Shown: positions 1-26,304, numbered from the stretch's first letter. The stretch is 27,510 bases of DNA from an uncultured Nitrososphaerota archaeon (GCA_964636085.1 CAZWPQ010000029.1:1-27510); one strand, 5' to 3'. A program made the numbers and translations. The notes: generated from the sequence alone by a model not told the origin.

Positions 1-17
1 GGCTGAGAAGGCCTACG

Positions 18-5667: not shown

Positions 5668-5825
5668 CCTATTGAGGAGCAATCATCGCTGTTTTTAGCT
5701 ATAATATCTTTACCTGATTTCTTCCAATTAATTCTAAATATCAATAAGCAATAGCTGTTTGGCTGAACTTTTATTTTATTTTTTTTATTCTACATCACTT
5801 ATTTGTGGTGGGTTGGTGTTTAAAA

Positions 5826-8330
5826 ATGTTTAAAGAGTTTTTGTTGCTTGTCTTGGCCACCCTATCTTTTCCAAGCACCTATTTAGGCCAAGGCGCCACT
5901 GTAAATTTCTCCAGGCGAAACGTACATATCGCTACAGCGATTATAGATTATGATAGTACTCCTAGAGACATGCCTACCCATATTTGGCATCCCAAATATA
6001 ATGAGAATCCAGATATACCAGGATTTCTATGGATGGATAAACAACACATTTATTTAGAATTATGGAGACAGAATATCGTCCAGACAACAATGGTAAATGT
6101 GGGAAGAATAACTGGCATAGCCCCACCACAGGAAGGGGACTGGATAATTGATAATCTAACAGTTGTCGAGGATTCCACCCTAATAATTAATGGTAGCATA
6201 ATAGTAGAGCCGTCTGGACAATTAGTGCTCAATAATACGACCATCCTTATGAATCTAAGTTATGATGGGCAACACTATATAGAGGTCCTAGGAAATCTAA
6301 CTGCTTTTAACACGAGAATAACGGCCTACAATACATCGAATAATTATTATATTGTTGTTGAGGATGGAGCAAAATTTCTTTTGGATAGATGCGAAATAGA
6401 CTATGCGGGCTATAGTATTGGGGATAACGGACGATACTCAGGATTATGGATAAATACAAACAATGCAAAAATTATCGCGACCAAACTCGCCAATAACTAC
6501 ATTGGCATTGTGGCATACGAGGTCTTAGGGCTTGAGCTCATTAATTGTACCATAGAAAACAATGGAGATGGTGTAATAATACATGAATCTATGGATAGTA
6601 TCATTCACAATAATACGATTGCTAACAATAGCTGGACTGGCCTGACATGCTATTTTTCCAATTCCAGCCATGTAGAGGAAAACATGATCTATAATAATAA
6701 AGAGGGTATTGTGATGTACAGGTCAACAGATTATGTAATTGCTAATAATTCTATTGGCAGGAATAGAGAGGCAGGACTTATGCTCATGTATTCCTACGGA
6801 AATAATATCAGTAACAACACGTTCATTCATAGTGGGTTATGGGTGACTGGTTCATATGATAATATCGTCGTTAATAACACAGTGAATAGCAAACCGCTTG
6901 TTTATCTTGAAAATCAAAGTGATGTTACGATAAATGATGCTGGACAGATAATATTGGTAAAATGTAGTAACATAATAGTTACCGATCTAGAAATTACTGA
7001 TACAACCATAGCGATAGAGCTGTACGAATCAAATAATGTGGAGATATACAATAATACGATTGCTAATAATTTCCATGGGATCTATATTGTCTACTCAACA
7101 AATAACCATATCCACGATAATGTATTGATAAATAATGGTCTTAGATTATATGAATCCTACAACAATATTATTGAAAACAACACTGTGAATGGCAAACCAC
7201 TCGCATATCTAGAGAATCGGTCAAACGCCATCATTACTAATGCTGGCCAAGTAATATTGGTAAGATGCAATAACATAACGGTTAGGAGTATAGAATTAAA
7301 CAATGTCACGATCGGAATAGAATTATATGACTCCACAAATATTTATGTATACAACAGCACCATAATCAACAATCTGCACGGGTTTTATATCTATTACTCA
7401 ACCAATGTTACAATAAGAGACAATATAATCAAGAATAATCGCTGGGACGGAATATTTATGCATTCGTCATCGTATATCAATGCATCCTATAACTTGATTG
7501 CACACTCCTACTACGAATCAATATACATGAAGTACTCATCGAGAAATTACATTTTTAACAATACAATATCAAACAACACCCATGATGGAATAACACTGGA
7601 GTATTCTTCATGGAATATGATATTTGAAAATACAATCGAGAATAATGGCGATACTGGCATAGGACTCGTTGGATCTAATTACAACAACATCTATATCAAC
7701 AACTTTATCAATAACACAGTACAATACGATTTCCTATATTCCGACTCCACACTATATTCCCCCAACCCCCTAATATACACATATAGGGGTACAATACATA
7801 AAAGCTTCCTTGGCAACTACTGGAGCGATTATAATGGAACAGATGATGATGCGGATGGAATAGGGGATATCCCCTATGGTTTAGACGAATACCCCTTGAT
7901 GGAACCATGGAATTCTCCAGTTGGCATTGTTCTGGTCAGAGATAGACAGCCTCCAACAATCTCAATAACAACACCCACTAATGGGTCTAATGTGAACACG
8001 ACATTTTCTGTCGTATGGGATGCCAATGATGATGTCCAGCTGGTAAAGTTTGAAGTTTTTATGGATGATGAATTTATTACAGATACGAGTAACTATAGCT
8101 ATCAATTCATAGATGTAGAGGTTGGTTGGCATAGCGTCACGATCGTAGCCCTGGATCTCTCAGACAAATACTCCTCAGATACAATATATGTTCATGTCAT
8201 AATTTTAAACGAGACCACCACATCTAAACCTACATCCAAATGGTTCAACATATACATACCTATCGCATTTGGATTAATTGGTGTATCCGTCGCGATCATC
8301 ATCATACTAAAGCGAAAGGAAAATAAATAG
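5826..8330 (+). CDS. Secreted, C-terminally anchored right-handed parallel beta-helix (NosD/CASH-like) protein with an Ig-like domain
   Basis: ATG at 5826 follows GGTG and starts a signal-like MFKEFLLLVLATLSF (ORF track starts at GTG 5805). Many N-x-I-x-x-N-x-I / GI-x-L repeats. NosD-type C-terminal motif GNYWSDYNGTDDDADGIGDIPY...DEYPL. Ig-like DRQPPTISITTP. TM IYIPIAFGLIGVSVAIIIIL followed by KRK. Confidence 0.88.
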   Translation: MFKEFLLLVLATLSFPSTYLGQGATVNFSRRNVHIATAIIDYDSTPRDMPTHIWHPKYNENPDIPGFLWMDKQHIYLELWRQNIVQTTMVNVGRITGIAPPQEGDWIIDNLTVVEDSTLIINGSIIVEPSGQLVLNNTTILMNLSYDGQHYIEVLGNLTAFNTRITAYNTSNNYYIVVEDGAKFLLDRCEIDYAGYSIGDNGRYSGLWINTNNAKIIATKLANNYIGIVAYEVLGLELINCTIENNGDGVIIHESMDSIIHNNTIANNSWTGLTCYFSNSSHVEENMIYNNKEGIVMYRSTDYVIANNSIGRNREAGLMLMYSYGNNISNNTFIHSGLWVTGSYDNIVVNNTVNSKPLVYLENQSDVTINDAGQIILVKCSNIIVTDLEITDTTIAIELYESNNVEIYNNTIANNFHGIYIVYSTNNHIHDNVLINNGLRLYESYNNIIENNTVNGKPLAYLENRSNAIITNAGQVILVRCNNITVRSIELNNVTIGIELYDSTNIYVYNSTIINNLHGFYIYYSTNVTIRDNIIKNNRWDGIFMHSSSYINASYNLIAHSYYESIYMKYSSRNYIFNNTISNNTHDGITLEYSSWNMIFENTIENNGDTGIGLVGSNYNNIYINNFINNTVQYDFLYSDSTLYSPNPLIYTYRGTIHKSFLGNYWSDYNGTDDDADGIGDIPYGLDEYPLMEPWNSPVGIVLVRDRQPPTISITTPTNGSNVNTTFSVVWDANDDVQLVKFEVFMDDEFITDTSNYSYQFIDVEVGWHSVTIVALDLSDKYSSDTIYVHVIILNETTTSKPTSKWFNIYIPIAFGLIGVSVAIIIILKRKENK
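6798..7403 (+). repeat. Diverged 303-bp (101-aa) tandem duplication inside the beta-helix gene
   Basis: NNTVNSKPLVYLENQS..AGQIILVKCSNI..IELYES..HGIYIVYST versus NNTVNGKPLAYLENRS..AGQVILVRCNNI..IELYDS..HGFYIYYST, offset 303 nt. Confidence 0.85.
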
Positions 8331-8899: not shown

Positions 8900-9323
8900 C
8901 TAGCGGTCATGGTCAGCAGGGCAATTATCTAGGCTCCAATAAATCACGGGCATGTCTGCGATGTATGCTCCCCTTAAAATCTTTGGTAAGTACACCAGTA
9001 TTGGCCCAAATGTAGGGCCTCTCACTTTTACCCTGTAAGGCTTACTATCACCTGTACTTACAACATGGAACATTAGTTCGCCTCTCGCATTTTCAACGAA
9101 GTGAAACGCTTCATCTTTTGGCATTTTTGAGAATGGAGTAAGTCTTTTCCCATCCTCTATAGTTGTCGCTCTTACTGGGCCCTCTGGAAGATTATCTATG
9201 GCATTTTCTATTATGTGTAGGCCTTCCTCTATCCCCTTTATCTGGACTATTGTTCTGGGGGGCATCTACAGCATTTTGGATCTGTACAGTAAAGTCAATT
9301 TTGCCATATGCCTCATATGGATA
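8900..9323 (-). pseudogene. mbxL: Frameshifted 3' remnant of an MbxL/MbsL-like (NuoD / group-4 hydrogenase large-subunit family) gene
   Basis: C-terminal motifs ENARGEL...KPYRVKVRGPTF...IADMPVIYWSLDNCPADHDR; the DxCxxD end has one Cys, typical of MbxL/MbsL rather than the CxxC of NiFe enzymes. Upstream, in a different frame (9323-9264), YPYEAYGKIDFTVQIQNAVDA matches the family PY..Y..LDF.V.....GD.. segment. The frameshift is near the G6 run at 9257-9262. The N-terminal part and partner subunits are absent. Confidence 0.82.
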
Positions 9324-10557: not shown

Positions 10558-13500
10558 ATGTCTATATTGGCTGGTGAAAATAAAAAGGCTAAATTATCTA
10601 CAAGAAAAAAGCTCATAGTAGTTGTAATAGTAGTGCTCCTAATTGGGACGACTTTATTTTATGTATTATACCTCCGCATCCCGAAGGAAGCCAAACCAGA
10701 CACGTCGTTAAATCCGCCAGAATACTCCCCATTACCCGAGGATTGGGATGGTGATGGAATAAAAAATGCTTTGGAGGCTCTCTACGGTACTGATCCATAC
10801 AATCCTGATTCGGATGGCGATGGTATATGGGATGGATATGAGATCAATTGGAATATTGATATTGATGGGGATGGCTACATAAACGCTCTAGATATGGATT
10901 CTGATGGTGACGATTTATTAGATGGCGTGGAGGATAAAAATCTTAATGGTATTGTAGATGTTGGTGAGACAAGCTATGTTTTAGCTGATACGGATAGCGA
11001 TTGCTTACTTGATGGAGTCGAGGACTTCAACCTTAATGGGATTGTCGATGAGGGGGAGCCAAACCCTCTTGATAATGATACGGACGACGATGGATTGATG
11101 GATGGATTGGAGATAGATTGGAATGCTGATAGTGATAATGATACCATAATAAACGTTCTGGACCTAGACTCCGATTCGGATACACTACTTGACGGGGATG
11201 AGTTTTATGTATACAACACAAGCCCCATTAATAATGATACTGATTACGATGGAGTGGCAGACAATGTAGAGCTCATAAAAGGGACGAATCCGCTGGATTC
11301 GGATACAGATAACGACGGATTAATTGATGGAATAGAAGCCACCAATGATGCATATTGGATAGAGGCCGAGCAGTACGTAATTGATCCAGATATGCAGTTA
11401 GAGGAGGATATAAACGCAACAAATAATCTAACCGTACAATCACTTCCGGATGGGAGACTAATAGAGGGAGATCTACCAATAAATCTCACTGCTGGGCACT
11501 ACAAATTATTCCTCAGAGTAAAAGCTGTGTATTCTATCTATGGCGCCCCATACATCGATATTGGAATTATTGGGGATAATGTGGATTATTCGGACAGGAT
11601 ATTTTTGACATATGTTAATGTTTCAGCATATCTGAATGTTACGGACCCGAACATATATAGATGGTATTCAACACGACTCCTAAATGTATCCCAGAATGAG
11701 AGCCTACACCTTGTAGTAAATGCGAGTCTAAATGACGTTATCTTTATAGACAGACTGCTCCTATATAAGATAAAAACAATAAAGTATATCCCGACGGATC
11801 CACTAGTAAACGATACGGATATGGACGGCTTATTGGATGGGGATGAAGAAACAATCGAGTCATATTGGTGGGAAGCCGAAGATTATGCCTACGATGAAAC
11901 CCAGATAATTGATAACTCGGACTGGAGCAATGGGAAGGGGGTCATAAATCTCGAAAATGGTAGTATATGCAGGATAGAGGATGAAAACGCTGTATTTATG
12001 CCTAGTGACTACTCAATATATGCAAGAATAATAGAGGAGGATCCCTACAACGACACATTCCCGAATGTTTGTGTTGTGCTACATATAGACTATATTGGGG
12101 GAGGAGAAAAAATTATCCCAGGAATCATGCAGGCCAAGGGTCCATATCCTAGGGGGAGGTGGATAGTAGCATATTTTAATGGTTGCATGGGAATAAGCTT
12201 TTTTACATTAGATAAACCAGCAAAGCTAACAATAGAGCTAGATATTGTATCCACCGCATGGGAACATGTATTTGTTGACAAAATAGCACTAATGAACCTA
12301 CGTTTCAATAGATCTAGATATCTGGGCCATATCTATGATTATGATTTAGTGCCAAGAGCTAAGGATCCAATGGATCCCGACACAGATGGTGATCAATATA
12401 GGGTGCTTGATGGTGTGCTTCCTAACTCAACGGGTTACCTTACCGATGGATTCGAATGGAATTTGGGTATGAATCCTATGGGTATCGATACGGACTTTGA
12501 TAATCTGTTTAATTTTTCTGCATTTTTGACCGACGATTTTGATCCAAACCCATTTGATAGCGATTCTGACGGGGATGGACTATTTGACTGGATTGAAGAT
12601 TTTAATTTGGATGGAAAGTGGAATGCATCACATGGAGAGACAAATTACCTCGACGCGGACACAGATGATGATGGAATCATAGATGGAAACGAAGATTGGA
12701 ATTACGATGGCCTATGCGAGTTTTGGGAGACAGACCCATTGCTGAACGATACTGATTATGACCACTTGATAGATGGTTATGAGATAGGATTATGGAGACC
12801 ACAGAAATACGGTATAGGCACAAGTAATTGGCCATATAGATCCATAGCAAATAGAACTATACACAAAACGAATCCTACTAATTGGGATACGGATGGGGAT
12901 GGCCTTCCTGACGGATGGGTAGACTTTAACAACAATAGCATCATGGATCCCGGAGAATATGAGGATAAGGATCTTGACGGCATGACGAATTATGGAGCAT
13001 GGAGAAATGGCACAGGATTCGGTGAAACCGATCCTACATCGCCAGATTCTGATGGGGATTATATCTGGGATAACGAGGAAATAGACCAGGGACTAAACCC
13101 AATAGTTTTTGACTATCCAGACCTAGAAATAACACCCAGCGACCTGAAGGTTATTCCTAAGCGCCCTACCACTCCAAAGCGTTGGGAATACATAGGGTTT
13201 ACCATAGGGGTAACCATTGGGAATATTGGCAACAACTCTATGCCCTCATGGAGACATAAAAGACTTTTCAAGATCGAGGTTCTTGCATTTAATAATGTCA
13301 GTGGCTATTTAAGTAGTATTGGATACAGTAGCTCATCCATTAACAAAATAGAGCCGGGAGGATCCGTATACATGGAGGTACAGGTATGCCTCAGGGGAGG
13401 ATATTATAACATAACCATAGAGGTAAAAGCGAGAGCAAGGGAAAAATCAAAAACCAACAATAGAGCAACTATTCAGATCCATGTATATAGCCCGCCTGAA

Positions 13501-16065
13501 GCATATCCATATCTCGATCTTGAGGGATATAATAAGTATGGATATGCCGTTATTGAGGAAAATCGAACTAACGTTAGTGTGATAGGTATTGGGGAGGATC
13601 TAGACGGGGAGATCGCTTATTATATGTGGGACTTCGATATGGATGGGATATGGGACTTTGTTAGTAATGAAACTGGAAATACAACAATAGTAATTAGCCA
13701 ACCCGGAAAATACACATTCAGGTTTAGAGTCGTCGATAATGATGGTCTATTTGATGAGAGCTCAGTTACTTTTCAGCTGGTTAATCCATCGGAGGTAGAT
13801 TCCGATGGGGATGGCCTAACTGATAAGGAAGAAGCTGATGTATATGGTACAGATATTTATAACGCGGATACGGATGGCGATGGGCTTAGCGATTCTTATG
13901 AGATAGAGATAGACTCCAGTCCTGTTAGCATGGACACCGATAGTGATGGTATTGATGATTGGTTAGAGACAGCTCTATTCGTAGCATTTGGCTATAATGC
14001 CTCACAGAAAAGGGATAATGATGGTGATGGATTAATAGACATTAGAGATAACGATTCTGATAATGACGGGCTATTGGATGGTTACGAGATTAGATGTATT
14101 GATTATAGCAATCCGTTCGACATAAGAAACTGGATTGGCATGAACCCATACCTGAATGATTCTGATTATGATGGACTTAGTGACTATCAGGAAAATAAGA
14201 CATATAGGTCGAATCCGTTGAATCCAGACAGCGATGGCGATGGCTTAACGGATTATGAGGAGGTAGTATTTGGAACAAATATTTGGAATCAAGACACCGA
14301 TAATGATGGGGTTAAGGATGGTTATGATATACAGCCATTCCTGAATTATCCATATCAGCCATTCACATTTACTTATGCTACAGGCGAAATAAGATATAAT
14401 ACAACAATACATGTTTTTGGTTTCAATGGATCAGCATGGAAAGATGTTGGCTATGGTTGGATACCTGTTGATCCGCCCCCAGGAAATGTAAAGACAAGCA
14501 AAATAAACCCAGCTTCCATCGGTAGTCTAGAGGCTTGGGGAAGTTTCGCCATCGAAGACCTAACATATATCGGTAGGGAATTAAAACACCGTGTCATGGG
14601 TATTAGTTGCACGGTTCCAGTAAACTGGAAAGTGATATATTATCTCTATAGCTATAATTATAATGCCTCTTTCTATAATAAGGAACCTATATGGCTATGG
14701 GCGGAGTCACATGCGATATTTCCAGTATACCTATACAACGGCAGAAATCAGACCGTTTCGATCCAGTTTATAGCGATCAATGATGAATCATTCGTAGGTG
14801 ATGGCAACTATAGATATATCGCATTTACCTACGACATATTTAAATATGAGGACATAGAGATATCCAACGGAAAAATTTCTGAGGTCTATTCTTGGCCCCT
14901 ATATTCCGAAACGACACCTGCAACTAGATTATATGGAAATGTTTATCAGGTAGACATAAGCATCCCGATCGAATATACACATCTGGGTAGGGTCTATCTA
15001 AGGATAAAGCCTATATGGATTGAGCATTTTAGAAACAAGACAAGAATAATCACAGTTCCCTACTGGAGGATAAATATAACATCCATGGCTCACCAAGTTT
15101 TCCTACCAAACGGCAAACTAGTTATCGGCAGAAAGACACTTAGAGATTTCAATAATACAATAGACACAAGATATTTCGAGCCCTCAACATATCAAAAACA
15201 TATACATAAGGAATCTGATATGCTATCATACGCCAATGATACGTACCTATATGAGGTACATGCATCAGACACATATTTCCTAAAGAACCAAGACGCATCC
15301 ACAGTTATGCTCTTATTTACTTCTAAAGACACAGTCTCTCAGTCTACGTCCGTGGAAACATTCATAAATTCGCTCCCAAGTAAGGTTAAGTCTAGAGAAA
15401 CAACAATAAATCTATTTAGGACTAAAGTAAATGAGATGTTAAGTAAGGCATCTAAAAAATACACAGTCCAAGTAATTGCGGCAATTACTAAGCATATAGA
15501 ATCCCTATCCTTCACATATGACAATGTGAAAATGCCATCAATACTCGAATTGGCATTCGATATGACTGGTGATATTCTTGGTTATTCTGAGGATATCTGT
15601 GATGTTTTGGCCGAGAGGTTCATCAAATATGCGGACACATTCGAAAAAGCCGCCAAAATAATAGGAAAAATTTCTTTTGGATTAGAAATAGCCGAGACCG
15701 CAATATATATTGGTCTACTGGCACAAAAAATCATGGAGACAAACGACCCCCACCTCCAGAAATACTACGCAGTTAAGATGATGTTTGCTATTGCAAGAAT
15801 CGCGATAGAGGTAGCATTAGAGATAATACTTCCAGAAATAGGCGGATACATAATCGCCGCCATAGACATTATAATTGAGGTATTCGGCCTAGACGAATAC
15901 ATAGAGCAATTCCAAAGATGGATAGTTGCATGTTGGGAGGCACTTACTGGAGAATGTCCAGAGGAATTCGCAAGACAAATGTATGAAAAAGCATGCAGAA
16001 AAATAATCGATCTAGTATCAAAGGGCCCGGACATCTCCGTTATGATAGTCCCCAGATACAAATAA
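10558..16065 (+). CDS. Giant N-terminally anchored surface protein with about 30 DxDxDG Ca-binding (TSP3-like) repeats, two CBM-like inserts, CARDB and PKD domains, and a hydrophobic helical C-terminal domain
   Basis: N-terminal TM RKKLIVVVIVVLLIGTTLFYVLYL. About 30 D-x-[DN]-x-[DN]-G-type motifs counted by eye. Two modules start WIEAEQY / WWEAEDY (CBM6/35-like). CARDB-like PDLEIT...IGNIGN...EKSKTNN. PKD-like YMWDFDMDG...PGKYTFRFRVVDNDG. Confidence 0.8.
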   Translation: MSILAGENKKAKLSTRKKLIVVVIVVLLIGTTLFYVLYLRIPKEAKPDTSLNPPEYSPLPEDWDGDGIKNALEALYGTDPYNPDSDGDGIWDGYEINWNIDIDGDGYINALDMDSDGDDLLDGVEDKNLNGIVDVGETSYVLADTDSDCLLDGVEDFNLNGIVDEGEPNPLDNDTDDDGLMDGLEIDWNADSDNDTIINVLDLDSDSDTLLDGDEFYVYNTSPINNDTDYDGVADNVELIKGTNPLDSDTDNDGLIDGIEATNDAYWIEAEQYVIDPDMQLEEDINATNNLTVQSLPDGRLIEGDLPINLTAGHYKLFLRVKAVYSIYGAPYIDIGIIGDNVDYSDRIFLTYVNVSAYLNVTDPNIYRWYSTRLLNVSQNESLHLVVNASLNDVIFIDRLLLYKIKTIKYIPTDPLVNDTDMDGLLDGDEETIESYWWEAEDYAYDETQIIDNSDWSNGKGVINLENGSICRIEDENAVFMPSDYSIYARIIEEDPYNDTFPNVCVVLHIDYIGGGEKIIPGIMQAKGPYPRGRWIVAYFNGCMGISFFTLDKPAKLTIELDIVSTAWEHVFVDKIALMNLRFNRSRYLGHIYDYDLVPRAKDPMDPDTDGDQYRVLDGVLPNSTGYLTDGFEWNLGMNPMGIDTDFDNLFNFSAFLTDDFDPNPFDSDSDGDGLFDWIEDFNLDGKWNASHGETNYLDADTDDDGIIDGNEDWNYDGLCEFWETDPLLNDTDYDHLIDGYEIGLWRPQKYGIGTSNWPYRSIANRTIHKTNPTNWDTDGDGLPDGWVDFNNNSIMDPGEYEDKDLDGMTNYGAWRNGTGFGETDPTSPDSDGDYIWDNEEIDQGLNPIVFDYPDLEITPSDLKVIPKRPTTPKRWEYIGFTIGVTIGNIGNNSMPSWRHKRLFKIEVLAFNNVSGYLSSIGYSSSSINKIEPGGSVYMEVQVCLRGGYYNITIEVKARAREKSKTNNRATIQIHVYSPPEAYPYLDLEGYNKYGYAVIEENRTNVSVIGIGEDLDGEIAYYMWDFDMDGIWDFVSNETGNTTIVISQPGKYTFRFRVVDNDGLFDESSVTFQLVNPSEVDSDGDGLTDKEEADVYGTDIYNADTDGDGLSDSYEIEIDSSPVSMDTDSDGIDDWLETALFVAFGYNASQKRDNDGDGLIDIRDNDSDNDGLLDGYEIRCIDYSNPFDIRNWIGMNPYLNDSDYDGLSDYQENKTYRSNPLNPDSDGDGLTDYEEVVFGTNIWNQDTDNDGVKDGYDIQPFLNYPYQPFTFTYATGEIRYNTTIHVFGFNGSAWKDVGYGWIPVDPPPGNVKTSKINPASIGSLEAWGSFAIEDLTYIGRELKHRVMGISCTVPVNWKVIYYLYSYNYNASFYNKEPIWLWAESHAIFPVYLYNGRNQTVSIQFIAINDESFVGDGNYRYIAFTYDIFKYEDIEISNGKISEVYSWPLYSETTPATRLYGNVYQVDISIPIEYTHLGRVYLRIKPIWIEHFRNKTRIITVPYWRINITSMAHQVFLPNGKLVIGRKTLRDFNNTIDTRYFEPSTYQKHIHKESDMLSYANDTYLYEVHASDTYFLKNQDASTVMLLFTSKDTVSQSTSVETFINSLPSKVKSRETTINLFRTKVNEMLSKASKKYTVQVIAAITKHIESLSFTYDNVKMPSILELAFDMTGDILGYSEDICDVLAERFIKYADTFEKAAKIIGKISFGLEIAETAIYIGLLAQKIMETNDPHLQKYYAVKMMFAIARIAIEVALEIILPEIGGYIIAAIDIIIEVFGLDEYIEQFQRWIVACWEALTGECPEEFARQMYEKACRKIIDLVSKGPDISVMIVPRYK

Positions 16066-16390: not shown

Positions 16391-19300
16391 TTGGCTCCTA
16401 AGCTGATAAGAATATTAAGGAATGGATTAAGAAAAATTAAGGAGAAAGTATCAGGCTTTTTTGAGAGACATCCAACACTCACGAGGATTCTGGTATTTAC
16501 GCTTAGCTTCCTGCCCTTTGTCCCCTCCATAATCCAAACAGCAAAATCTAGTGCGATAGGGTCAGTACTCGTTAAAAGAAGAGAATCCATAGAGCAGGGG
16601 CAGATCGATGACGACTTTTGGGGAGATATATCCACGATACTGAACGATAGAAACATTGTAGAGATAACAAAGTTTATAAGAATGGCACTAGAGAGGATCC
16701 TAGAAGAGCGAAAATTGAAGGAAATTATTGGCGAGGCCGTGGCTGGCCTTGCAACAAGGGATGATGTCGAGCTCTTGCGCTCCGAGTTATTCCTCCTGAA
16801 GGAATACATGGGGAAGAATCTTGAGGATCTATACACAAAATATAGGGCCATGGTGGAGTCTTCAATAGACCTAATAGAAAACTACCTATCTGTGCATACC
16901 GAGATATCGACAATACCATATATTATACCCACAGCCTTCATGAGGTATGTTGAGGATCCATCTACAGGGATAAAACTTATCGAAAGAACCACAAGCATTA
17001 TCGAGAAATATGTTAAGCTTGCGGCTCCGGAGAAACTGGAGGAATATAGGACATGCATAAAGAATGACATTAGCATGCTTTTCCAATATCTCTTCGATGG
17101 CGATCTTACTGGGGCATTAGATGTGGCCAGAACCATTGAGAATAGAGCCAAGGATATACTAGGGGAGAAGGCCTCATTAATAATGGATGTTATCTATGCC
17201 GCAGAGGGAGAAATAAGAAAAATCTTGGGTTCGATTAGGAACAAGAAGCAGATATTAGACGCAATAGATGAATTAAGGGCACAACTCAAAAAACACAGAG
17301 CAGAACCCGAACTAATAAATAGCCTCAATGCCAGCATAATTAGAGTAGAGGGCATCCTCGAAAAATTCGAGACCACACTAAGAACCGTAGAGAACATAAT
17401 CGAGACAAACCTAAAGAACCCACCCATGATAAGTCCCCTAACATACTCGAGAAACCAGGTAAACAACGCAATTATCCTAGCCAAAAAACCGGGCGACCAA
17501 GAATTCAGCCAGGAACTCCACGTGGATAGAGGAAAAGTCCAGAGGAAAATAATGGAGCATGTACAAAAGGAGACAAGAAAAAACATACTCATAGTAACAG
17601 GCAGAGTGGGTGTAGGGAAGACATGGCTACTATCATATATAGCCAAGTATTCACTCGAAAAGCTAAATAAAATAACATTCCTCGTACCACTAGGCAAAAT
17701 AGATGACCCAGAGGAATATATTAGGCAGTTGCTCTATAAAATAAATCCAAAATATGTAAGCCTGGAGACACAACTCGAAGAAATATCCAACAAATACAAT
17801 GGGACAATAATAATATTGGATGCACTGGACGAGCACAAGCAGGACAAATACAGAATAATAAGACTGTTATCAAGAATGCGGGGAATACCAAAGACAAGAG
17901 TGATCATGAGTACTTGGGAGGGAACAATAAGGCTAAGCCCCGCCATACAGAGGGAGCTACAAGATCTTGAGAGCCATGGCTACCTAGAAACAATAAGGAT
18001 AGGGGGATTCACGTCGTCTGAGATAAAACAGGCACAGCAAAAATATGGGACAGAAATCCCTAGGAGCCTCATCGAACTCACAAAGGAGTACCCGTTCTTG
18101 ATAAACATAGTAAGAAAACTTAAGCAAAAGGGAGAGCAACCAGAGATCCATACACCAGAGATATATGACGAAATACTGATGAGGCTAAATATTGATCCAC
18201 AGAGCGTGGAGGTTGCGGAAACAGGAAAACTGTTCAACATAGTCGCTACAGGCCAGATTGATGCGTCAACATTCATACCGTACCAAGACAGAAACGAGAA
18301 GGTGGAGACAATATTCCATACCCACGAGATCCCTAGAAGATTGCTGGAGGCGGGAATAATCACTAAGATGGGGAGAAAATATAGATGTAAAAACCCTTGG
18401 ATAACAGCATACCTAATAGCTAAGGGCATACTGGAGGGAAGAAGGGAGGATATACAGAAACCCCAAACAGAACCACAGATCCTGAGTATACCACAATACG
18501 TGGAGCAGAAAACAAACTATAGAAACAAAACCATCGTAGCGGAAATAGCCAAGAGAATCGGAGAAAAAACAGCACAAATAGAGTACATAGAGGCATCCAC
18601 ACAACACAACCACTATGAAGCGGCGGGGGCAACAGCAATTATACATGGCCTCCTACACCTAGCACCCGGCCTAATACAGCAGGCACATCAGATCCTTCAA
18701 AATACACCACCAACAAAAAGGCTTATTCCCGAAGGAATTATAGAGGAGGCCTATAGAAATGAACAAATAGATGTCCTAAGGGTCATAGGTAGGCAAATAT
18801 TGGAGGCACTTAAAACAAGGGCCACATGGAATAAAACGATACAACAAATACAACAAATAACCCCGGCACCCACAATACCAACAACAGCGCCAGCAATAAC
18901 CATAAACCAGATAAACATACAGATAGAGGAACAAACAATAACACTATATAGGGGAGAAACAGCAATAATTGGGAGAATACCTAAAAGCCAAATACAGACC
19001 CTAGAAGACGCCTACAGACTAGCAGCCCTGATCACGAGAAGGGACGGAAACCAACAACTAGTAAAACTAGACATTACAAATCCACTAATAACGAGGCTAC
19101 CACCAGACAAGAGGGGACACGTAAAAATCCAGCTAACACAAGAAGGACAAATAATAGTGATGGATCTAGGATCAACAAACAGGACGGCAATCAATGGAAA
19201 AATAATACCGCCGAACAAAGAAACAACAACAAGACCAAACACAGAAATAGTTTTAGCTCCAGAAACAACAAATGCGGTAAAAATAAAACTAAGAACATGA
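16391..19300 (+). CDS. STAND/NACHT-like P-loop NTPase with N-terminal helical domain and C-terminal FHA domain
   Basis: Walker A ILIVTGRVGVGKT and Walker B TIIILDALDE. Downstream RVIMST...IGGFTSSEI...PFLI pattern resembles STAND NTPases. FHA motifs GETAIIGR...ITR..GH..IIVMDLGSTNRTAING. TTG start follows GGTG. Confidence 0.82.
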   Translation: MAPKLIRILRNGLRKIKEKVSGFFERHPTLTRILVFTLSFLPFVPSIIQTAKSSAIGSVLVKRRESIEQGQIDDDFWGDISTILNDRNIVEITKFIRMALERILEERKLKEIIGEAVAGLATRDDVELLRSELFLLKEYMGKNLEDLYTKYRAMVESSIDLIENYLSVHTEISTIPYIIPTAFMRYVEDPSTGIKLIERTTSIIEKYVKLAAPEKLEEYRTCIKNDISMLFQYLFDGDLTGALDVARTIENRAKDILGEKASLIMDVIYAAEGEIRKILGSIRNKKQILDAIDELRAQLKKHRAEPELINSLNASIIRVEGILEKFETTLRTVENIIETNLKNPPMISPLTYSRNQVNNAIILAKKPGDQEFSQELHVDRGKVQRKIMEHVQKETRKNILIVTGRVGVGKTWLLSYIAKYSLEKLNKITFLVPLGKIDDPEEYIRQLLYKINPKYVSLETQLEEISNKYNGTIIILDALDEHKQDKYRIIRLLSRMRGIPKTRVIMSTWEGTIRLSPAIQRELQDLESHGYLETIRIGGFTSSEIKQAQQKYGTEIPRSLIELTKEYPFLINIVRKLKQKGEQPEIHTPEIYDEILMRLNIDPQSVEVAETGKLFNIVATGQIDASTFIPYQDRNEKVETIFHTHEIPRRLLEAGIITKMGRKYRCKNPWITAYLIAKGILEGRREDIQKPQTEPQILSIPQYVEQKTNYRNKTIVAEIAKRIGEKTAQIEYIEASTQHNHYEAAGATAIIHGLLHLAPGLIQQAHQILQNTPPTKRLIPEGIIEEAYRNEQIDVLRVIGRQILEALKTRATWNKTIQQIQQITPAPTIPTTAPAITINQINIQIEEQTITLYRGETAIIGRIPKSQIQTLEDAYRLAALITRRDGNQQLVKLDITNPLITRLPPDKRGHVKIQLTQEGQIIVMDLGSTNRTAINGKIIPPNKETTTRPNTEIVLAPETTNAVKIKLRT

Positions 19301-19503
19301 TACCAACAAAAAACATAATCGAGATAGGGCCTAATTTTGCATTAGTGTATGGATGACTTTCCTACCACACCAAGCAGACATGGAAGAACCACTAGCAAAA
19401 AAGTAGTTGTATCCTCCTTCGATGCCTTAACTCATTATATAGCTGCAAAAGCGACTCTTATACCTTTATGCTTTATTGCTTTGGAGAAGATAAATTTATT
19501 TGG

Positions 19504-19824
19504 CTATATTTCCTCCAGTTCTTGTGGATCTATAAATCTTAGGTACCAATTATTCAGTTGTTTCTGAGTTATTATGTGTAGCTCTATCGGAGCGTCTATT
19601 GATTTATAGACTTCGGTCATGATCTCGTACTTCATATCTATTTTCTCCGTAATAACCAATATATCTATATCGCTCGTAGCGGTAAATTTGCCCCTAACAA
19701 CAGAACCAAAAACAAATACTCTGGCCCTAGAATCAAATTTTTTCACTATCTCTTTGACCTTCCTCGCGATTCTCCTATAATCCCTTAGCATATCAAGAAC
19801 GCTACTGCCGTATCTTCTCGACAA
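19504..19824 (-). CDS. Minimal nucleotidyltransferase (MNT), antitoxin of a HEPN-MNT pair
   Basis: VFVFGSVVRGKFTATSDIDILVI (GS...DxD motif); overlaps the HEPN stop codon region. Confidence 0.92.
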   Translation of the reverse strand: MSRRYGSSVLDMLRDYRRIARKVKEIVKKFDSRARVFVFGSVVRGKFTATSDIDILVITEKIDMKYEIMTEVYKSIDAPIELHIITQKQLNNWYLRFIDPQELEEI

Positions 19825-20194
19825 GGCTTCTGAACACCTCTACAACAAACCTATACAGATCCCTAACCTCCTTCTCCTCATAGACATATGGGAGATATCT
19901 TGATGCGATATAGGCCTCCTCAAGTCTTGCTATATAGTGGATATATCTTGTATCCTCAACAAGACTCAAGATACTCTGATCAAATTCTCCTAGCTCCCTT
20001 ATTAGTCTCCTTAGAGAGTGAGTGCGTGGATAGCTACCTCGCAGGACAAGTAGTTTATACTTTATTATCAATTGACAATATTGCTCCAAATTAAACATTG
20101 CCAAGTCCCATTCGCCCTCCTCCATAAGTCTTTCCGCATTCTTAAGGAAGGCTTCTGCACGCCTTTTCAAAATCTCAGCCTCCTCAAACGCCAA
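19802..20194 (-). CDS. HEPN domain protein (COG2250-type), putative toxin of a HEPN-MNT pair
   Basis: RAEAFLKNAERL..G.WDLAMF..EQ..QL..K...YPRTHSL..L...YIASRY signature; directly upstream of the MNT gene. Confidence 0.92.
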   Translation of the reverse strand: MAFEEAEILKRRAEAFLKNAERLMEEGEWDLAMFNLEQYCQLIIKYKLLVLRGSYPRTHSLRRLIRELGEFDQSILSLVEDTRYIHYIARLEEAYIASRYLPYVYEEKEVRDLYRFVVEVFRSLVEKIRQ

Positions 20195-20545
20195 AGCATA
20201 CCCCTAAATATCAAATATAATGGACTTATTCAAAATTGGTATTTTTTTGAATATAAAGCTTAGATAAAAACAACAGTAACAATGAACAAAAATTAAACAT
20301 AGTAAATCAAAGAAAAACATCATTAATCGTTGAGTGTATCAGAAACTCTTCCTTTTCATCAATCTAGAGTTGCCATATAAGAAACCCATAGACAACAATT
20401 CACTACTCGAGATGAAGTCAAAGATAAGAGGCCCCTTGTGGAAGATCCTCTACCAACACTCCAAACATCAACAAACATCTAATTCGTGAACGTAACTCAA
20501 CCTATCCATATAGCCAAATACAATCAATGAATGCTACAACACAAG

Positions 20546-22714
20546 CTAGATTATAACATCGATAAAACTAAACACCCTAAGCATATAGTCCCAACTTCCC
20601 GTTGCTAGAAGTTTACCATCTGGAGAAAAAGCCACTGACACCACACCACCTACGTGTTTATACTCAAATATCCTTCTCCATGAGTTTACCTCGAATACTC
20701 TAAGCATTTTATCCTTGCTTCCAGTTGCTAGAAGTCTACCATCGGGCGAAAATGCCACAGAATACACGGGGCTTTTATGTTTATATTCGAATATTATCTC
20801 CCACGACCCAATTTTGAATACTCTAAGTATACCGTCCCAACTTCCAGTTGCGAGATATTTATTCTCTGGTGAGAAAGCAACAGAAAAAATATCGTACTCA
20901 TGATTGTGTTTATATATAATCCTCCATGTAGTAGTTTCAAATACTCTAAGCATATTATCTCTACCTCCCGTTGCTAAATATTTACTATCAGGCGAAAAGG
21001 ATAGGGATAATATTGCAGCTCCATGTTTATGTCTATATACTTTTTTCCACGAACCAATCTCGAAGACCCTAAGTATGTTATCAGCGCATCCCATCGCTAG
21101 ATACATATTGTCTGGCGAGAATGCTACAGAACATACGGAGCCTCCGTACCCCTTTATAAATATTGCTGTCCATGTAGTAGTTTCAAATACTCTAAGCATA
21201 TTATCTCTACCTCCCGTTGCTAAATATTTACTATCAGGCGAAAAGGATAGGGATAATATTGCAGCTCCATGTTTATGTCTATATACTTTTTTCCACGAAC
21301 CAATCTCGAAGACCCTAAGTACATTGCCCCAGCTTCCAGTTGCGAGATATCTACCATCAGGTGAGAATGCTACGGAGAGCACGGTACCTTCACACTTATA
21401 CTCGAATATTCTTTCCAATATTGTTTCTACTTTATTGTGGGCACGCAATATCTTTTGTATTGTTTGTGGTGTTGTTTGGTATAGTTTTGCTATTTTCTGC
21501 ACTATGTCTTGTACTAATTGTCCTCTGTATTTTTCTGTTGTTTGTAGTATATGTTGGAGCGTTATTTTTGGGATTGCTGTGTCTCCAATGATTTCTATGT
21601 TTGTTGGTGGCTCTATGTTTATTGTTCCAAGCGTCACTATGGTTCCTGTTTTCCCTATTATTTGTAGTGCCTGTAGTATTAGCTGTGGTTTTCTCAGTGT
21701 GTGTGCTAGTGGTGTTCCTTTTGTAGCAAGTCTTATTGCCTCCACTATTAGTTCTTGTGTTGGGTTGTCTAGGTAGTAGATTTTTTCTCCTATGGCTACT
21801 ATGTCTTGTCTTGGTATTTCTCTTATTATATCTACTACCGTTTGCGGTTCTAGGCCCGTGTTTTCCGCTATTTCTCCTATTGTTGTGTATCCTCTATTCT
21901 TGTATGTTTCTAGGATTCTCAATACCCTCTCTATGGGTGGTAGTAGGTCTATACCTATTGGTATTGATTGTCTTTCTGTAGCTTTTTTTGTGGCTATTTT
22001 CAGTGCTTTCTTTAGGAGCATTGTGTTTGGCCATCTCTTTTCCTGTTCTGGCTGCAGACACTTGTCTATTACTTTTCTTATGGGTTCTGGGGTTTTTCTG
22101 TATGGCTGGTGTTCTCCCAGGAGTATTTCCGCCTCCCAGTCCTCTGTGAACGCCTGTTTTCCTTCATATATTTCGTATATTATTGTTCCGAGCTGGAATA
22201 TGTCTGTCTTCTCGCTTATTTCTCCATATTCCCCATATATTTGTTCTGGGGCGGCATATTTTGGCGTGTATGTCTTTTTTCCCATGCTCCTTAGTGCTGC
22301 ACCTTCGAAGTCTATTATTCTTATTTTCCCGTCTTCCCCAATGAGTATGTTGTTTGTGTTTAGGTCTCCATGGACTATCCCCCTTCTATGCATGCATTCT
22401 ATTGCCTCGATGATCTGCATTATTATGTTCCCTGCTTCCGCCAGAGATATTTTCGGTATTATTTCCCTGAGTGTAGTTGGTGCATATTCGAATATTAATG
22501 TTGGGTTTTGTTGTGTTGGTTTGTTGAGGAGTCTTATTATTCCTGGACAGTCCGCTAGTTTTTCCAGAATCCTTGCCTCAAGCAGTAATAGATTCATTAT
22601 TTCTGGCTTTACTGTCTCCTCGATCCTCTTGACAACGTATTTTTCTCCATCCTTCTCTATGAGGAGTACCGATATGCCTAATGGGCTCCTCTTCAGAACC
22701 CTAAGAACCCTCAT
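20546..22714 (-). CDS. Hanks-type Ser/Thr protein kinase - winged helix - 7x WD40 repeat protein (kinase A)
   Basis: YVVKR (beta3 Lys), LLEARIL (alphaC Glu), HGDLNTNN, IIDFE, YAAPEQ, KTDIFQLG. wHTH-like TTIGEIAENTGLEPQTVVDII. Seven 41-aa WD40 units (SVAFSPDG.YLATGS.D..LRVF). Likely start is ATG 22714, aligning with the paralogue (ORF track starts 22756). Confidence 0.92.
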   Translation of the reverse strand: MRVLRVLKRSPLGISVLLIEKDGEKYVVKRIEETVKPEIMNLLLLEARILEKLADCPGIIRLLNKPTQQNPTLIFEYAPTTLREIIPKISLAEAGNIIMQIIEAIECMHRRGIVHGDLNTNNILIGEDGKIRIIDFEGAALRSMGKKTYTPKYAAPEQIYGEYGEISEKTDIFQLGTIIYEIYEGKQAFTEDWEAEILLGEHQPYRKTPEPIRKVIDKCLQPEQEKRWPNTMLLKKALKIATKKATERQSIPIGIDLLPPIERVLRILETYKNRGYTTIGEIAENTGLEPQTVVDIIREIPRQDIVAIGEKIYYLDNPTQELIVEAIRLATKGTPLAHTLRKPQLILQALQIIGKTGTIVTLGTINIEPPTNIEIIGDTAIPKITLQHILQTTEKYRGQLVQDIVQKIAKLYQTTPQTIQKILRAHNKVETILERIFEYKCEGTVLSVAFSPDGRYLATGSWGNVLRVFEIGSWKKVYRHKHGAAILSLSFSPDSKYLATGGRDNMLRVFETTTWTAIFIKGYGGSVCSVAFSPDNMYLAMGCADNILRVFEIGSWKKVYRHKHGAAILSLSFSPDSKYLATGGRDNMLRVFETTTWRIIYKHNHEYDIFSVAFSPENKYLATGSWDGILRVFKIGSWEIIFEYKHKSPVYSVAFSPDGRLLATGSKDKMLRVFEVNSWRRIFEYKHVGGVVSVAFSPDGKLLATGSWDYMLRVFSFIDVII
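20923..21321. repeat. Exact 153-bp direct repeat (20923-21075 = 21169-21321) within the WD40 array of kinase A
   Basis: Base-by-base identity; spacing of 246 bp equals two 123-bp WD40 units (WD2 and WD4 nearly identical). Confidence 0.95.
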
Positions 22715-23418
22715 TGCGTCGTCCCAGAGACACCAGGAATACATATAGAAATCCATTATAAAAAAGTTGTGGAGACAAAATATTGTTTCCCTAACTCCAT
22801 AGATTTGGTGTGGCTGTCTGCCATTTTTAACTCAAATTTGCATATATGTAAAGGTCTCTTGAGTTTATTGGGGAGGCTGTGGGGAGCCTAATGAGAAAAT
22901 TAAGGACCCTCACAATAAACCCTTCCAAGAACAGGGAAGTTATACTTGCCGAAATGAATGGGAAAAAAGTCGTAGTGAAGCAACCCATAGGGACTGTTAG
23001 CCCAAGCGAAATAAACATATTTCTTGGCGAGGCAGAAATACTAACGAAAGTACAGGAATGCCCCGGAATAATCAGACTTATGAACCCCCCAGGCAATATA
23101 CCAATGATAATCTATGAGTATGCACCAAAGACACTAAGAGAGATAATACCAAGCCTAGGGCCGGACCGAGCAAGTGAGATAATAAGACAGATAGTGGATG
23201 CAATAGAATGCATACACAATAGGGGAATAATCCATGGTGATCTGAACCCAGACAACATACTCATTGGGGAAGACGGGAAAATAAGAATAATAGACTTCGA
23301 AAGCTCGGCAAGAAGAAATCTTGGCCAGAGGACATTCACACCAAAGTATGCGGCCCCAGAACAAATAAGCAGCGAGTATGGAGAAATAAGCGAGAAGACA
23401 GACATATTCCAGCTCGGA
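22187..23418. repeat. Inverted repeats formed by the two divergent kinase domains
   Basis: 22304-22353 is the exact reverse complement of 23252-23301 (50 bp). 22187-22228 is the exact reverse complement of 23377-23418 (42 bp). Confidence 0.9.
22715..22890. promoter_or_regulatory. Divergent promoter region shared by the two kinase-WD40 genes
   Basis: 176-bp gap between head-to-head ATGs. Minus-strand TTTTATAA near 22755-22762. GGGGAG RBS before ATG 22891. Confidence 0.5.
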
Positions 23419-24441
23419 GCAATAATATATGAAATATACGAGGGAAGGACAGCATTCACTGAGGAATGGTATAACGAGATAACACAGGGAAAACATAGAC
23501 TATTTCAAAAAACACCACCACAGATAAGAGAGATAATAGATATGTGCCTAGAGCCAGACCCGGAGGATAGACCAACAATAAAACAGCTAAAAAGAATGCT
23601 GAAGATAGCTATGACGGCACAACTAGCAATAACAATAGACATGAAAAAACCGCCAATAGAGAGGGTGAGAGAATACATTGAAAAAATAATAGACAAGCCC
23701 ATAGCAATAGGAATAGAAAAACTAGCCCAACAACTAGGACTAACACCACAACAAATAAATGCAGCAATAAACATACTTACAGCAGAATACCCCATCGTAA
23801 TCATAGAACAAAGAATAGTCACACCAAAAGCACTAATAAGAATAGCGACAAAGACACAGAAGCCCCTAGCAGAAATGCTCGCAGGGAAAATGCTGCCAAC
23901 AACATACTGGCAGGCAATACTAAAACAGATAGAGGATATGGGAACAGTAGTACCATTCGGAGACCCACTAGAAACAAGAGCGGCAGAAAAAACAGAAAAA
24001 ATAAAAGCAAACGTAGATATTATAGCGGGGTATGCAGTACCAAAAACAACACAACAAACAATAAGAAAATACCTCCAAAACAGAACAATAACACAACAAC
24101 TAATACAACAAACAGCAACAGCACTAAACATACCGCCACAAATAATACAACCAACAACAAACCCACCACCAACAACAATATTCGAGCACGAGCACGGAGA
24201 CGCTGTGTTGTCTGTGGCCTTCTCACCAGATGGCAGACTCCTAGCAACAGGAAGCTACGACAAGATGCTCAGGGTGTTCGAGGTTGGGTCATGGAGAACA
24301 ATACAAGAGCACAGGCACAGAGGCGTTGTGTTGTCTGTGGCCTTCTCACCAGATGGCAGACTCCTAGCAACAGGAAGCTCGGACAAGATGCTCAGGGTGT
24401 TTAGTGCTGTGTTTTTGGGTGTTATTCGTGGTTTCATATGA
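22891..24441 (+). CDS. Hanks-type Ser/Thr protein kinase - winged helix - WD40 protein with only 2 WD40 repeats (kinase B)
   Basis: VVVKQ, LGEAEIL, HGDLNPDN, IIDFE, YAAPEQ, KTDIFQLG. wHTH-like IGIEKLAQQLGLTPQQINAAI. Two units VLSVAFSPDGRLLATGS.DKMLRVF. ATG 22891 follows GGGGAG (ORF track starts 22879). Confidence 0.9.
   Translation: MRKLRTLTINPSKNREVILAEMNGKKVVVKQPIGTVSPSEINIFLGEAEILTKVQECPGIIRLMNPPGNIPMIIYEYAPKTLREIIPSLGPDRASEIIRQIVDAIECIHNRGIIHGDLNPDNILIGEDGKIRIIDFESSARRNLGQRTFTPKYAAPEQISSEYGEISEKTDIFQLGAIIYEIYEGRTAFTEEWYNEITQGKHRLFQKTPPQIREIIDMCLEPDPEDRPTIKQLKRMLKIAMTAQLAITIDMKKPPIERVREYIEKIIDKPIAIGIEKLAQQLGLTPQQINAAINILTAEYPIVIIEQRIVTPKALIRIATKTQKPLAEMLAGKMLPTTYWQAILKQIEDMGTVVPFGDPLETRAAEKTEKIKANVDIIAGYAVPKTTQQTIRKYLQNRTITQQLIQQTATALNIPPQIIQPTTNPPPTTIFEHEHGDAVLSVAFSPDGRLLATGSYDKMLRVFEVGSWRTIQEHRHRGVVLSVAFSPDGRLLATGSSDKMLRVFSAVFLGVIRGFI
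24204..24401 (+). repeat. Near-identical 123-bp-period WD40 tandem repeat in kinase B
   Basis: 24204-24278 versus 24327-24401 match at 73 of 75 bases; the two mismatches fall in one codon (TAC/TCG, Y/S in GS-x-D). Confidence 0.95.
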
Positions 24442-25751: not shown

Positions 25752-26075
25752 TTATTCTCTCTTTATAGCTATGGTCGTATTATTTTTGGTGGCTATCTCT
25801 AGGGCTTTACTAAATTGTGACTTGACGAGCTCGAGCATATTTTTTGGGTCATTTAATTGCTCCAAATATATTATTGGATGGATATTAATGTATCTTAGAA
25901 AGTCGGAGTCGCATGTCAAGAGAACAGCTTGTTTCTCTTTCGCAAGCTTTAGGAGTTCTTTATTTTTTATGCCTCTAAGCGACGGATCTTCCGCTATAAA
26001 CATTACATGATGACCGATTCCTCGGAGATATCTGACTATTACTCTAGGTACATTTTCGTCGGCGATAATATACAT
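25752..26075 (-). CDS. DUF5615 / Mut7-C-type PIN-like toxin (VapC45-like)
   Basis: IIADENVP...LRGIGHHV...A...AVLLTCDSDF; directly downstream of DUF433. Confidence 0.88.
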   Translation of the reverse strand: MYIIADENVPRVIVRYLRGIGHHVMFIAEDPSLRGIKNKELLKLAKEKQAVLLTCDSDFLRYINIHPIIYLEQLNDPKNMLELVKSQFSKALEIATKNNTTIAIKRE

Positions 26076-26076
26076 G

Positions 26077-26304
26077 CTAGGAAACCTTTACCTCCGCCAA
26101 TAGTTTCTCCCCCTTTTTCAGTTTCTTGTATATGGTCTCGATTATATGGAGTGAGACCGATGGGTATTCCTCATGAACCTGCTTCGGGGTATAGCCATTC
26201 TTCAACATCCCAATTATTACGCTTACTGGAACCCTTGTCCCCCTAATCACAGGCTTTCCATGGCAAATTTCTGGGTCAGAAACAACGAATACCTCATCAC
26301 TCAT
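26077..26304 (-). CDS. DUF433 antitoxin (VapB45-like)
   Basis: VVSDPEICHGKPVIRGTRVPVSVIIGMLKNGYTPKQVHEEYPSVS signature; GGGGGT RBS. Confidence 0.93.
   Translation of the reverse strand: MSDEVFVVSDPEICHGKPVIRGTRVPVSVIIGMLKNGYTPKQVHEEYPSVSLHIIETIYKKLKKGEKLLAEVKVS

Follow-up and report, generated by a model that had tools for sequence, protein, structure and literature searches.

Signalling from a kinase to an FHA domain is known from many systems and signalling from a kinase to a STAND protein from AfsK-AfsR, but the two were not found described as one module. In Mycobacterium tuberculosis (PknH-EmbR), the FHA domain of EmbR reads the phosphorylated partner kinase, and in Sulfolobus acidocaldarius ArnA and ArnB, together with the kinases ArnC and ArnD, constitute an archaeal system leading from Ser/Thr kinases to an FHA reader. 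In eukaryotes, a phosphothreonine written by the kinase ALPK1 is read by the FHA domain of TIFA, which drives oligomerisation, and the kinase-family adaptor RKS1 supplies recognition to the NLR ZAR1. AfsK bears a C-terminal repeat domain of the beta-propeller type. It phosphorylates the STAND (NOD) regulator AfsR, which is encoded two genes away, at conserved Ser/Thr positions of its NOD and sensor regions, and this is reported to alter the activity of AfsR barely (PMC10936776). In the available text of three surveys, FHA and S/T/Y-kinase domains are moreover listed as fused to NACHT, MNS and nSTAND NTPases (Kaur et al. 2020, 2021; Kibby et al. 2022); there they count among the effector domains, N-terminal according to Kaur et al. 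2021, and the bacterial proteins keep their own repeat sensors. The locus analysed here lies at positions 16391-24441 of the window (i.e. the whole stretch of 27,510 nucleotides from an uncultured archaeon, GCA_964636085.1 CAZWPQ010000029.1:1-27510) and encodes an NTPase-FHA protein (P0001) and two kinases with WD40 repeats (P0002 and P0003). Its main features are the following.

16391-19300, + strand: P0001, the NTPase-FHA protein, 969 aa, with a helical N-terminus, a NACHT-type P-loop NTPase and a C-terminal FHA domain
18899-19297, + strand: the FHA domain of P0001 (Pfam FHA and fold match)
20546-22756, - strand: P0002, 736 aa, a kinase with a helix-turn-helix (HTH)-like module and a seven-blade WD40 domain (Pkinase, E 1e-32)
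22757-22878, no strand: the divergent intergenic region separating the kinase genes (from the gene coordinates)
22879-24441, + strand: P0003, 520 aa, a kinase with an HTH-like module, a Thr/Pro-rich linker and two WD40 blades (Pkinase, E 2e-33)

It seems quite possible, if short of probable, that P0001, P0002 and P0003 form a relay based on Ser/Thr phosphorylation, with a use in defence or conflict being favoured. In such a relay, the repeat-bearing kinases would be the input side, binding a ligand or partner via the WD40 face, and would generate phosphothreonine either in their own chains or in Thr/Pro-rich linkers (candidate acceptors being the kinase activation loops, as well as the Thr/Pro/Gln-rich linkers before the FHA domain of P0001 and before the WD40 repeats of P0003). 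The FHA domain of P0001, placed where the repeat sensor of a STAND protein normally sits, would read this phosphothreonine, and binding of the phosphopeptide would free the NTPase switch, upon which the helical, possibly membrane-associated, N-terminal region of P0001 would act. For this scheme we infer the identity of the acceptors, the engagement of the FHA domain, the activation and oligomerisation of the NTPase, the output and the biological role. We think that conflict or defence is the more likely use of the relay. A 'split NLR' proper, i.e. a STAND switch triggered by the phosphothreonine mark from sensor kinases with exchangeable WD40 or leucine-rich repeat (LRR) parts and directed at mobile elements such as viruses, seems rather doubtful.

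The domain layout given in the original prediction (helical N-terminus, P-loop NTPase and FHA domain in one protein, next to two kinase-WD40 paralogues) is borne out by Pfam, by motifs and by the FHA fold. The Pfam FHA profile scored 26.2 bits (cut-off 20.7) over residues 908-955 of P0001, and comparison with solved FHA domains, made on the confident part of the model (pLDDT mostly 80-87), gave VIA Z-scores of 10-12 with a root-mean-square deviation of 2.1-2.6 Å over 93-106 residues. These structural matches include Sulfolobus ArnA (Z 9.9), M. tuberculosis EmbR (Z 10.4; Foldseek E 1.5e-5 against the P0001 model) and Rv1747, and the top solved relatives of the FHA profile are the phosphopeptide-binding FHA domains of DgcB and ArnA (E 3e-11; 2.9e-11 for ArnA). 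Of the predicted phosphothreonine contacts, the domain keeps R862 (of the GR motif), R902, H910 and S928-T929-N930 (in GSTN, 927-930). The canonical Ser of the SR motif is replaced by Thr901 (T901-R902), and an insertion of 5-6 residues (loop LPPDKRG) lies between the Thr901 site and H910, in a low-confidence segment of the model. No other FHA domain was found in the metagenome-assembled genome (MAG) from which the window derives (2.41 Mb, 83% complete). At the DNA level, an A/C-rich segment before the FHA domain of P0001 (18841-18905) is 67-74% similar to one before the WD40 repeats of P0003 (24096-24178). The Thr/Pro/Gln-rich linkers of both proteins are possible phospho-acceptors, or merely share a low-complexity composition; in P0003 the linker spans residues ~414-433.

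From the N-terminus, P0001 consists of a helical region (~1-370), the NTPase (~378-552), a poorly modelled helical middle part (~553-835), the Thr/Pro-rich linker (~824-838) and the FHA domain (~836-968); its start codon, TTG, is uncertain. Two Pfam families scored above their cut-offs, NACHT with 34.1 bits (cut-off 26.7) and NPHP3_N with 31.2 (cut-off 24.8), and weaker matches below cut-off were obtained for nSTAND3, for nSTAND5 and for ATPase_2, an archaeal family. The Walker A motif reads GRVGVGKT (404-411, with Lys410 as its Lys), and the Walker B motif IIILDALDE (473-481) is NACHT-like. An AlphaFold2 model of residues 340-969, made from a six-sequence alignment, had a pLDDT of 49 overall (below 50 at ~551-729, behind the NTPase core, where the helical and winged-helix modules of a NOD architecture would be expected), and its top whole-model Foldseek matches were Dark/Apaf-1-like (E 2.5e-7) and the SIR2-STAND protein Avs5, at a TM-score of 0.2 for this low-confidence model. 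The VIA matches of the NTPase part were generic Rossmann-like folds. In line with what had been predicted, the NTPase is thus placed among the STAND-class families (NACHT clade), an assignment that leans chiefly on profile and motifs because the whole-model TM-scores are low. The C-terminal repeat sensor (WD40, TPR or LRR) of STAND NTPases is absent from P0001, where a single FHA domain stands in its place. At the other end of the protein, residues 1-375 were modelled as all-helical (pLDDT 53), with a hydrophobic helix at ~30-52 (Kyte-Doolittle 1.83), and gave no SARP/BTAD or other DNA-binding match in a profile search.

The two kinases scored 113.9 and 116.5 bits against the Pkinase profile (cut-off 31.7). 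They are paralogous, with 50% identity in the genome search and 59% over the aligned kinase domains, and are divergently transcribed. Both have a kinase core consisting of the VVVK Lys, the alphaC Glu of EAEIL, the HGD Asp, the Asn, the DFE Asp and APE, with HGDLNTNN as the catalytic loop of P0002 and HGDLNPDN as that of P0003. Judging from these motifs, P0002 and P0003 are atypical Hanks-type kinases and probably active. The activation segment regarded as a candidate acceptor reads R-T-F-T-P-K-Y. The true starts are likely residue 15 in P0002 (MRVLRVLK) and residue 5 in P0003 (MRKLRTL). The kinase domain is separated from the repeats by a module of ~180 aa, which is kept in P0003, in its metagenomic orthologue P0018 and in a paralogue on another contig of the genome (C32), and more distantly in P0002. 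The original prediction had described the architecture as kinase, winged HTH (wHTH) and WD40; the kinase and WD40 parts stand, and the wHTH part is weak, HTH_3 reaching 24.3 bits in the middle module of P0003 (cut-off 23), with several HTH and wHTH families matching below threshold in four homologues and no usable match in the ESM Atlas. A wHTH identity of this module is therefore plausible, but weakly supported.

The MAG has ~10 kinase genes, the others being fused to TPR, LRR or unknown modules. The C32 paralogue (P0020; 9785-12253 of its contig) has the HTH-like module of the P0003 type and no WD40 repeats, and adjoins a gene for an MNT-type (minimal) nucleotidyltransferase; kinases of the P0003 clade seem to sit in regions rich in toxin-antitoxin (TA) genes. 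On a further contig (C7, 37507-45087), WD40-like sequence in another frame (42446-42997) overlaps the 3' end of an 890-aa kinase frame (42418-45087, - strand), which may be a frameshifted kinase-WD40 fusion; at a distance of 3 kb there is a gene for a 696-aa protein with multiple WD40 repeats. The two window kinase genes share a 42-bp inverted stretch (22187-22228 and 23376-23417, identical when shifted by one base), which lies in the arms of a 471-nt inverted repeat of 75% identity (22034-22504 and 23101-23571); one public contig (run X1) joins both 42-bp copies on opposite strands. This could reflect gene conversion, inversion of the intervening segment or an artefact of the assembly graph.

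P0002 has seven WD40 repeats of 41 aa (20554-21389), with 43-83% identity among the blades, and this number suffices to close a propeller. Blades 1/3 and 2/4 result from a recent two-blade duplication of 246 bp, and the most variable blade columns include the residue preceding the conserved Asp of the B-C turn, which we take to be a top-face position of WD40. P0003 has two blades, too few to close a propeller on its own, and ends at the same repeat point as P0002 (LRVFS followed by a short hydrophobic tail). The orthologue P0018 (L109:97-1641), 60% identical to P0003, has the same two-blade layout. That P0003 is a truncated or frameshifted gene is ruled out by this layout of P0018 and by the homology of its C-terminus to that of P0002, and on this comparison the two-blade form of the kinase is a conserved architecture. 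The two blades may act as an oligomeric propeller or complement another protein. The sensors had been called variable, which held, as the repeat number differs both between the paralogues and between assemblies: P0019 is otherwise 100% identical to P0002 and is short by exactly two blades (i.e. five blades), and the LRR kinase of a second locus, described below, comes in forms of 561 and 501 aa (L025 and L026), two LRR units apart. The contigs from public runs are short and break inside the WD40 repeats, and cannot reveal repeat-number polymorphism.

P0001 is a near-orphan, with 10 weak matches at E <1e-3, none of them full length, among 1.84 billion representative proteins searched with HMMER. 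Its best match, P0005, is a 587-aa protein with an nSTAND5-type NTPase and an FHA domain of the same subtype (32% identity over 154 aa in BLASTP, E 3e-19; 37% in the HMMER stretch), with the FHA loop ITRLPPDK[RK]GHV being common to both and the GR Arg being a Lys in P0005. On its 12.8-kb metagenomic contig (L025), P0005 has a kinase gene on either side (P0014 and P0015), with HEPN/MNT pairs at a distance of a few kb. Across the whole kinase domain, P0014 shares 53% identity with P0003 (E 1e-78), and P0015 has a canonical catalytic loop (HRDLKPEN). Where the window kinases have the HTH-like module and WD40 repeats, P0014 and P0015 bear ribonuclease-inhibitor-like LRR repeats. The association of kinase and FHA domain has thus outlasted changes in repeat type, in NTPase sequence and in the N-terminal part, which is the main argument for a functional pairing. 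The predicted conserved linkage thus stands for one other locus, with LRR-bearing kinases and a 53% orthologue, and goes no further: a metagenome scan with the FHA-subfamily alignment returned the L025 contig alone and hence no third locus, the trio is absent from 399 other Asgard genomes (4 congeneric and 395 others), a scan of genome collections with the kinase alignment gave only generic kinases (≤40% identity), and scans of viral contigs gave nothing relevant. Word-indexed searches with P0001 and with the STAND-FHA alignment returned the query only, and were probably swamped by low-complexity words.

Within the MAG, which we treat as that of an Asgard archaeon, the only FHA domain lies ≤4 kb from two of the ~10 kinases, whereas the chance of one kinase locus falling within ±5 kb is ~3% by a rough estimate. 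Across 400 Asgard genomes, with the kinase clade called at E ≤1e-30, an FHA protein is present in three of the four genomes with the clade versus 26 of the 396 others (Fisher p = 0.0013), a value which overstates the co-occurrence and gives weak support because three of the four belong to one genus. The locus also has traits resembling those of conflict systems, namely a patchy distribution, TA modules at both loci, repeats that are similar and variable in number, and the swap of WD40 for LRR. A complex prediction for the kinase and FHA domains scored 0.00, which speaks neither for nor against binding; phospho-dependence is beyond such modelling.

A number of observations weigh against a relay of this kind. 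The conserved linkage is one comparison, with only two loci known, and even there the NTPases of P0001 and P0005 can hardly be aligned beyond Walker A (E 0.01) and carry different Pfam names (NACHT and nSTAND5, respectively). Both window kinases lack the GxGxxG loop and the catalytic-loop Lys (HGDLN versus HRDLK), which makes their activity plausible rather than certain. The MAG also encodes kinases that are joined to TPR, LRR or other modules and have no FHA partner, and a search of this genome, which is 83% complete, revealed no phosphatase of the PP2C_2 family. No effector can be named for P0001, because residues 1-375 match no entry of Pfam or the ESM Atlas. The variants in repeat number (7 versus 5 blades; 561 versus 501 aa) are either real alleles or the result of assembly collapse. 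Adjacency to TA genes is weak evidence because MNT-type TA genes are common, with 17 copies in the MAG. The broader STAND-FHA proteins have no kinase neighbour in the available DNA: no kinase is encoded within 10 kb on either side of the STAND-FHA gene of Asgard genome G001, and none within 10 kb downstream of that on contig L022.

This broader set, which has the canonical FHA loop, comprises P0007, P0009, P0010, P0011 and the 1012-aa protein of G001. P0007, a 699-aa STAND-FHA protein (L022:1-7563), is preceded by a fragment of a TPR-repeat gene cut by the contig end and followed by a gene for an Apyc1-like metallo-beta-lactamase, with cas6, cas1 and cas2 within a few kb.

At the family level there is no PADLOC or NCBIfam defence match to P0001-P0003; what similarity there is concerns single domains and stays far below the family cut-offs. 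For the AVAST families, NCBIfam Avs2 gave 20.2 bits for P0001 and Avs5 24.9 bits for P0005 (both cut-offs 1000), and PADLOC Avs2 matched P0001 in the NTPase region only (E 1.4e-5). The kinases are not members of the kinase-based defence families either (MADS mad6, PD-T4-6, Stk2, Mokosh MkoA and BREX PglW), with PADLOC matches limited to the kinase domain and NCBIfam scores of 77-85 bits for MAD6 (cut-off 460) and 24-31 for PglW (cut-off 990). Partner genes of known kinase-based defence systems were not found within the window.

Of the other explanations, we rank a regulatory role as a serious rival and chance adjacency as a smaller one. If the genes are coupled, they could serve ordinary intracellular signalling or gene regulation, as an archaeal counterpart of AfsK-AfsR or PknH-EmbR, which we consider possible, though on the unlikely side; that transcription or a cellular process would then be the target, either of the kinases' HTH-like modules or of the NTPase, is unlikely to a similar degree. 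The closest characterised systems are indeed regulatory (AfsK-AfsR, PMC10936776), and EmbR is matched by the FHA fold. The kinase HTH-like modules, which are kept in P0018 and in the C32 paralogue, would fit such a role, as would the lack of a recognisable toxic effector, and the many kinase-repeat fusions in the genome (with TPR, LRR or WD40) resemble a general signalling repertoire. However, the kinases of the second locus lack the HTH-like module and P0001 has no DNA-binding output domain, while extreme rarity and absence from congeneric genomes would be odd for a core regulatory circuit. The TA-rich surroundings and the variable, internally similar repeats suit conflict systems better.

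It is less likely, and to our mind improbable, that the adjacency is non-functional, i.e. that a variable, TA-rich region merely happens to contain both a STAND-FHA gene and a kinase gene duplicated in tandem. The TA pair separates the genes and their strands differ, for which reasons P0001 and the kinase genes are not one operon. Most kinase paralogues in the genome, as well as the related kinases of sister genomes, lack an FHA neighbour, just as most of the broader STAND-FHA proteins lack a kinase neighbour in the available DNA. Pairing of kinase and FHA domain as such is ordinary, and its recurrence elsewhere among Asgard genomes also counts in favour of the relay. Asgard genome G044 has two classical kinase-FHA operons: one with a vWA protein, an FHA-FHA-ABC transporter (of Rv1747-like layout) and a kinase (L106:501-5910), the other with a trypsin-like peptidase-FHA fusion followed by a kinase (L107:417-3313). 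What speaks against mere chance is that the combination recurs in L025 with an orthologous kinase (53% identity) and an FHA domain of 32-37% identity where all else has changed, and that the FHA domain of P0001 is the only one of its genome, in which a kinase locus within ±5 kb would be expected by chance in ~3% of cases. A foreign or mis-binned contig is ruled out by composition, since the GC content of the contig (0.393, against a genome mean of 0.392) and its tetranucleotide distance (unremarkable, rank 37 of 46) match the genome.

The window is the entire contig C29 of the MAG (102 contigs), and every gene in 16391-24441 is an open frame at the coordinates listed. A common promoter or operator motif was not found upstream of P0001, P0002 and P0003. 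The stretch is present in three metagenome DNA runs of hydrothermal-vent or sediment origin, with no RNA dataset among the runs listed as containing it. The remaining features of the window are as follows.

3-5633, + strand: a surface/adhesin-like gene, 1876 aa, open at the contig start and on the same strand as the other large upstream genes
5805-8330, + strand: a surface/adhesin-like gene, 841 aa, with NosD/right-handed beta-helix and Big_7 domain
10558-16065, + strand: a surface/adhesin-like gene, 1835 aa, with PKD and bacterial TSP3 repeats
19349-19567, + strand: a 72-aa open reading frame (ORF) directly downstream of P0001, overlapping the end of the MNT gene, matching no family and perhaps not a real gene
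19504-19824, - strand: MNT, the antitoxin-type partner of HEPN (NTP_transf_2, E 5e-13)
19802-20194, - strand: a HEPN protein, the toxin-type partner of MNT (HEPN, E 2e-26)
25752-26075, - strand: PIN-like DUF5615, half of a downstream TA-like pair (context)
26077-26304, - strand: DUF433, the other half of this pair (context)

The genes had been described as both interleaved with and flanked by TA modules. The interleaving is real (HEPN/MNT lies between the genes), and the flanking applies downstream only, the upstream neighbour being a giant surface protein. Amid the surface-protein genes, a 121-aa ORF at 8900-9265 (- strand) matches only the C-terminal part of Complex1_49kDa (NuoD-type; profile positions 137-271 of 271), and resembles a stranded gene remnant.

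If the proposed relay is real, it would mean that a phosphopeptide can serve as the activating ligand of a STAND/NLR-type switch and that such a switch can outsource recognition to interchangeable sensor kinases. The Asgard setting, as we presume it to be, bears on the question of how signalling through kinases could join with that through NLRs, be it before eukaryotes or outside them. General importance is limited by rarity, with two loci in all data searched and no recognisable output domain. The trio is also compact and offers clear positions for point mutants, i.e. Asp121 and Asp139 of the kinase (P0003 numbering), Arg862 and His910 of the FHA domain, and Lys410 of Walker A.

Compared with the systems described at the outset, the locus resembles AfsK-AfsR in that a Hanks-type kinase is encoded near a STAND ATPase. 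AfsR, however, begins with a DNA-binding effector of the SARP type, has a TPR sensor of its own and lacks an FHA domain, whereas P0001 has no recognisable DNA-binding domain and carries FHA in the place of the repeats; NCBIfam AfsK gave 35-41 bits for the window kinases (cut-off 1300), so that they do not form an AfsK/AfsR-type pair at the family level. EmbR, like P0001, is a multidomain protein with a C-terminal FHA domain, but it combines this with SARP/BTAD domains and lacks a P-loop NTPase, and its kinase PknH is a receptor in the membrane that bears no WD40 repeats. ArnA combines a zinc finger with FHA and partners a vWA protein, with neither a STAND NTPase nor a repeat-bearing kinase being involved, and a vWA domain was not seen among the window genes. 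As far as the accessible parts of the surveys go, the fusions listed there differ from P0001 in the C-terminal position of its FHA domain, in the placing of the repeats on separate kinases and in the (presumed) Asgard host.

The suggestion in the original prediction that no prokaryotic system has this layout was therefore too strong, since AfsK-AfsR, PknH-EmbR and the surveyed FHA/kinase-STAND fusions each cover parts of it. The split itself, in which FHA replaces the repeat sensor of the NTPase and the repeats reside on partner kinases in an archaeon, was not found described in a term-based search of the literature, as far as the sources retrieved by it extend. With ALPK1-TIFA and RKS1-ZAR1 the likeness is one of analogy only, TIFA having no NTPase and ZAR1 having its own LRR and no FHA domain: there is no homology between these eukaryotic relays and the window trio beyond the domain superfamilies, nothing indicates common descent, and nothing argues for the eukaryotic pathways descending from the trio. 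In functional terms, the trio (if it operates as proposed) would be a prokaryotic analogue of both kinase-guarded NLRs, as in RKS1-ZAR1, and assembly driven by phosphothreonine and FHA, as in ALPK1-TIFA.

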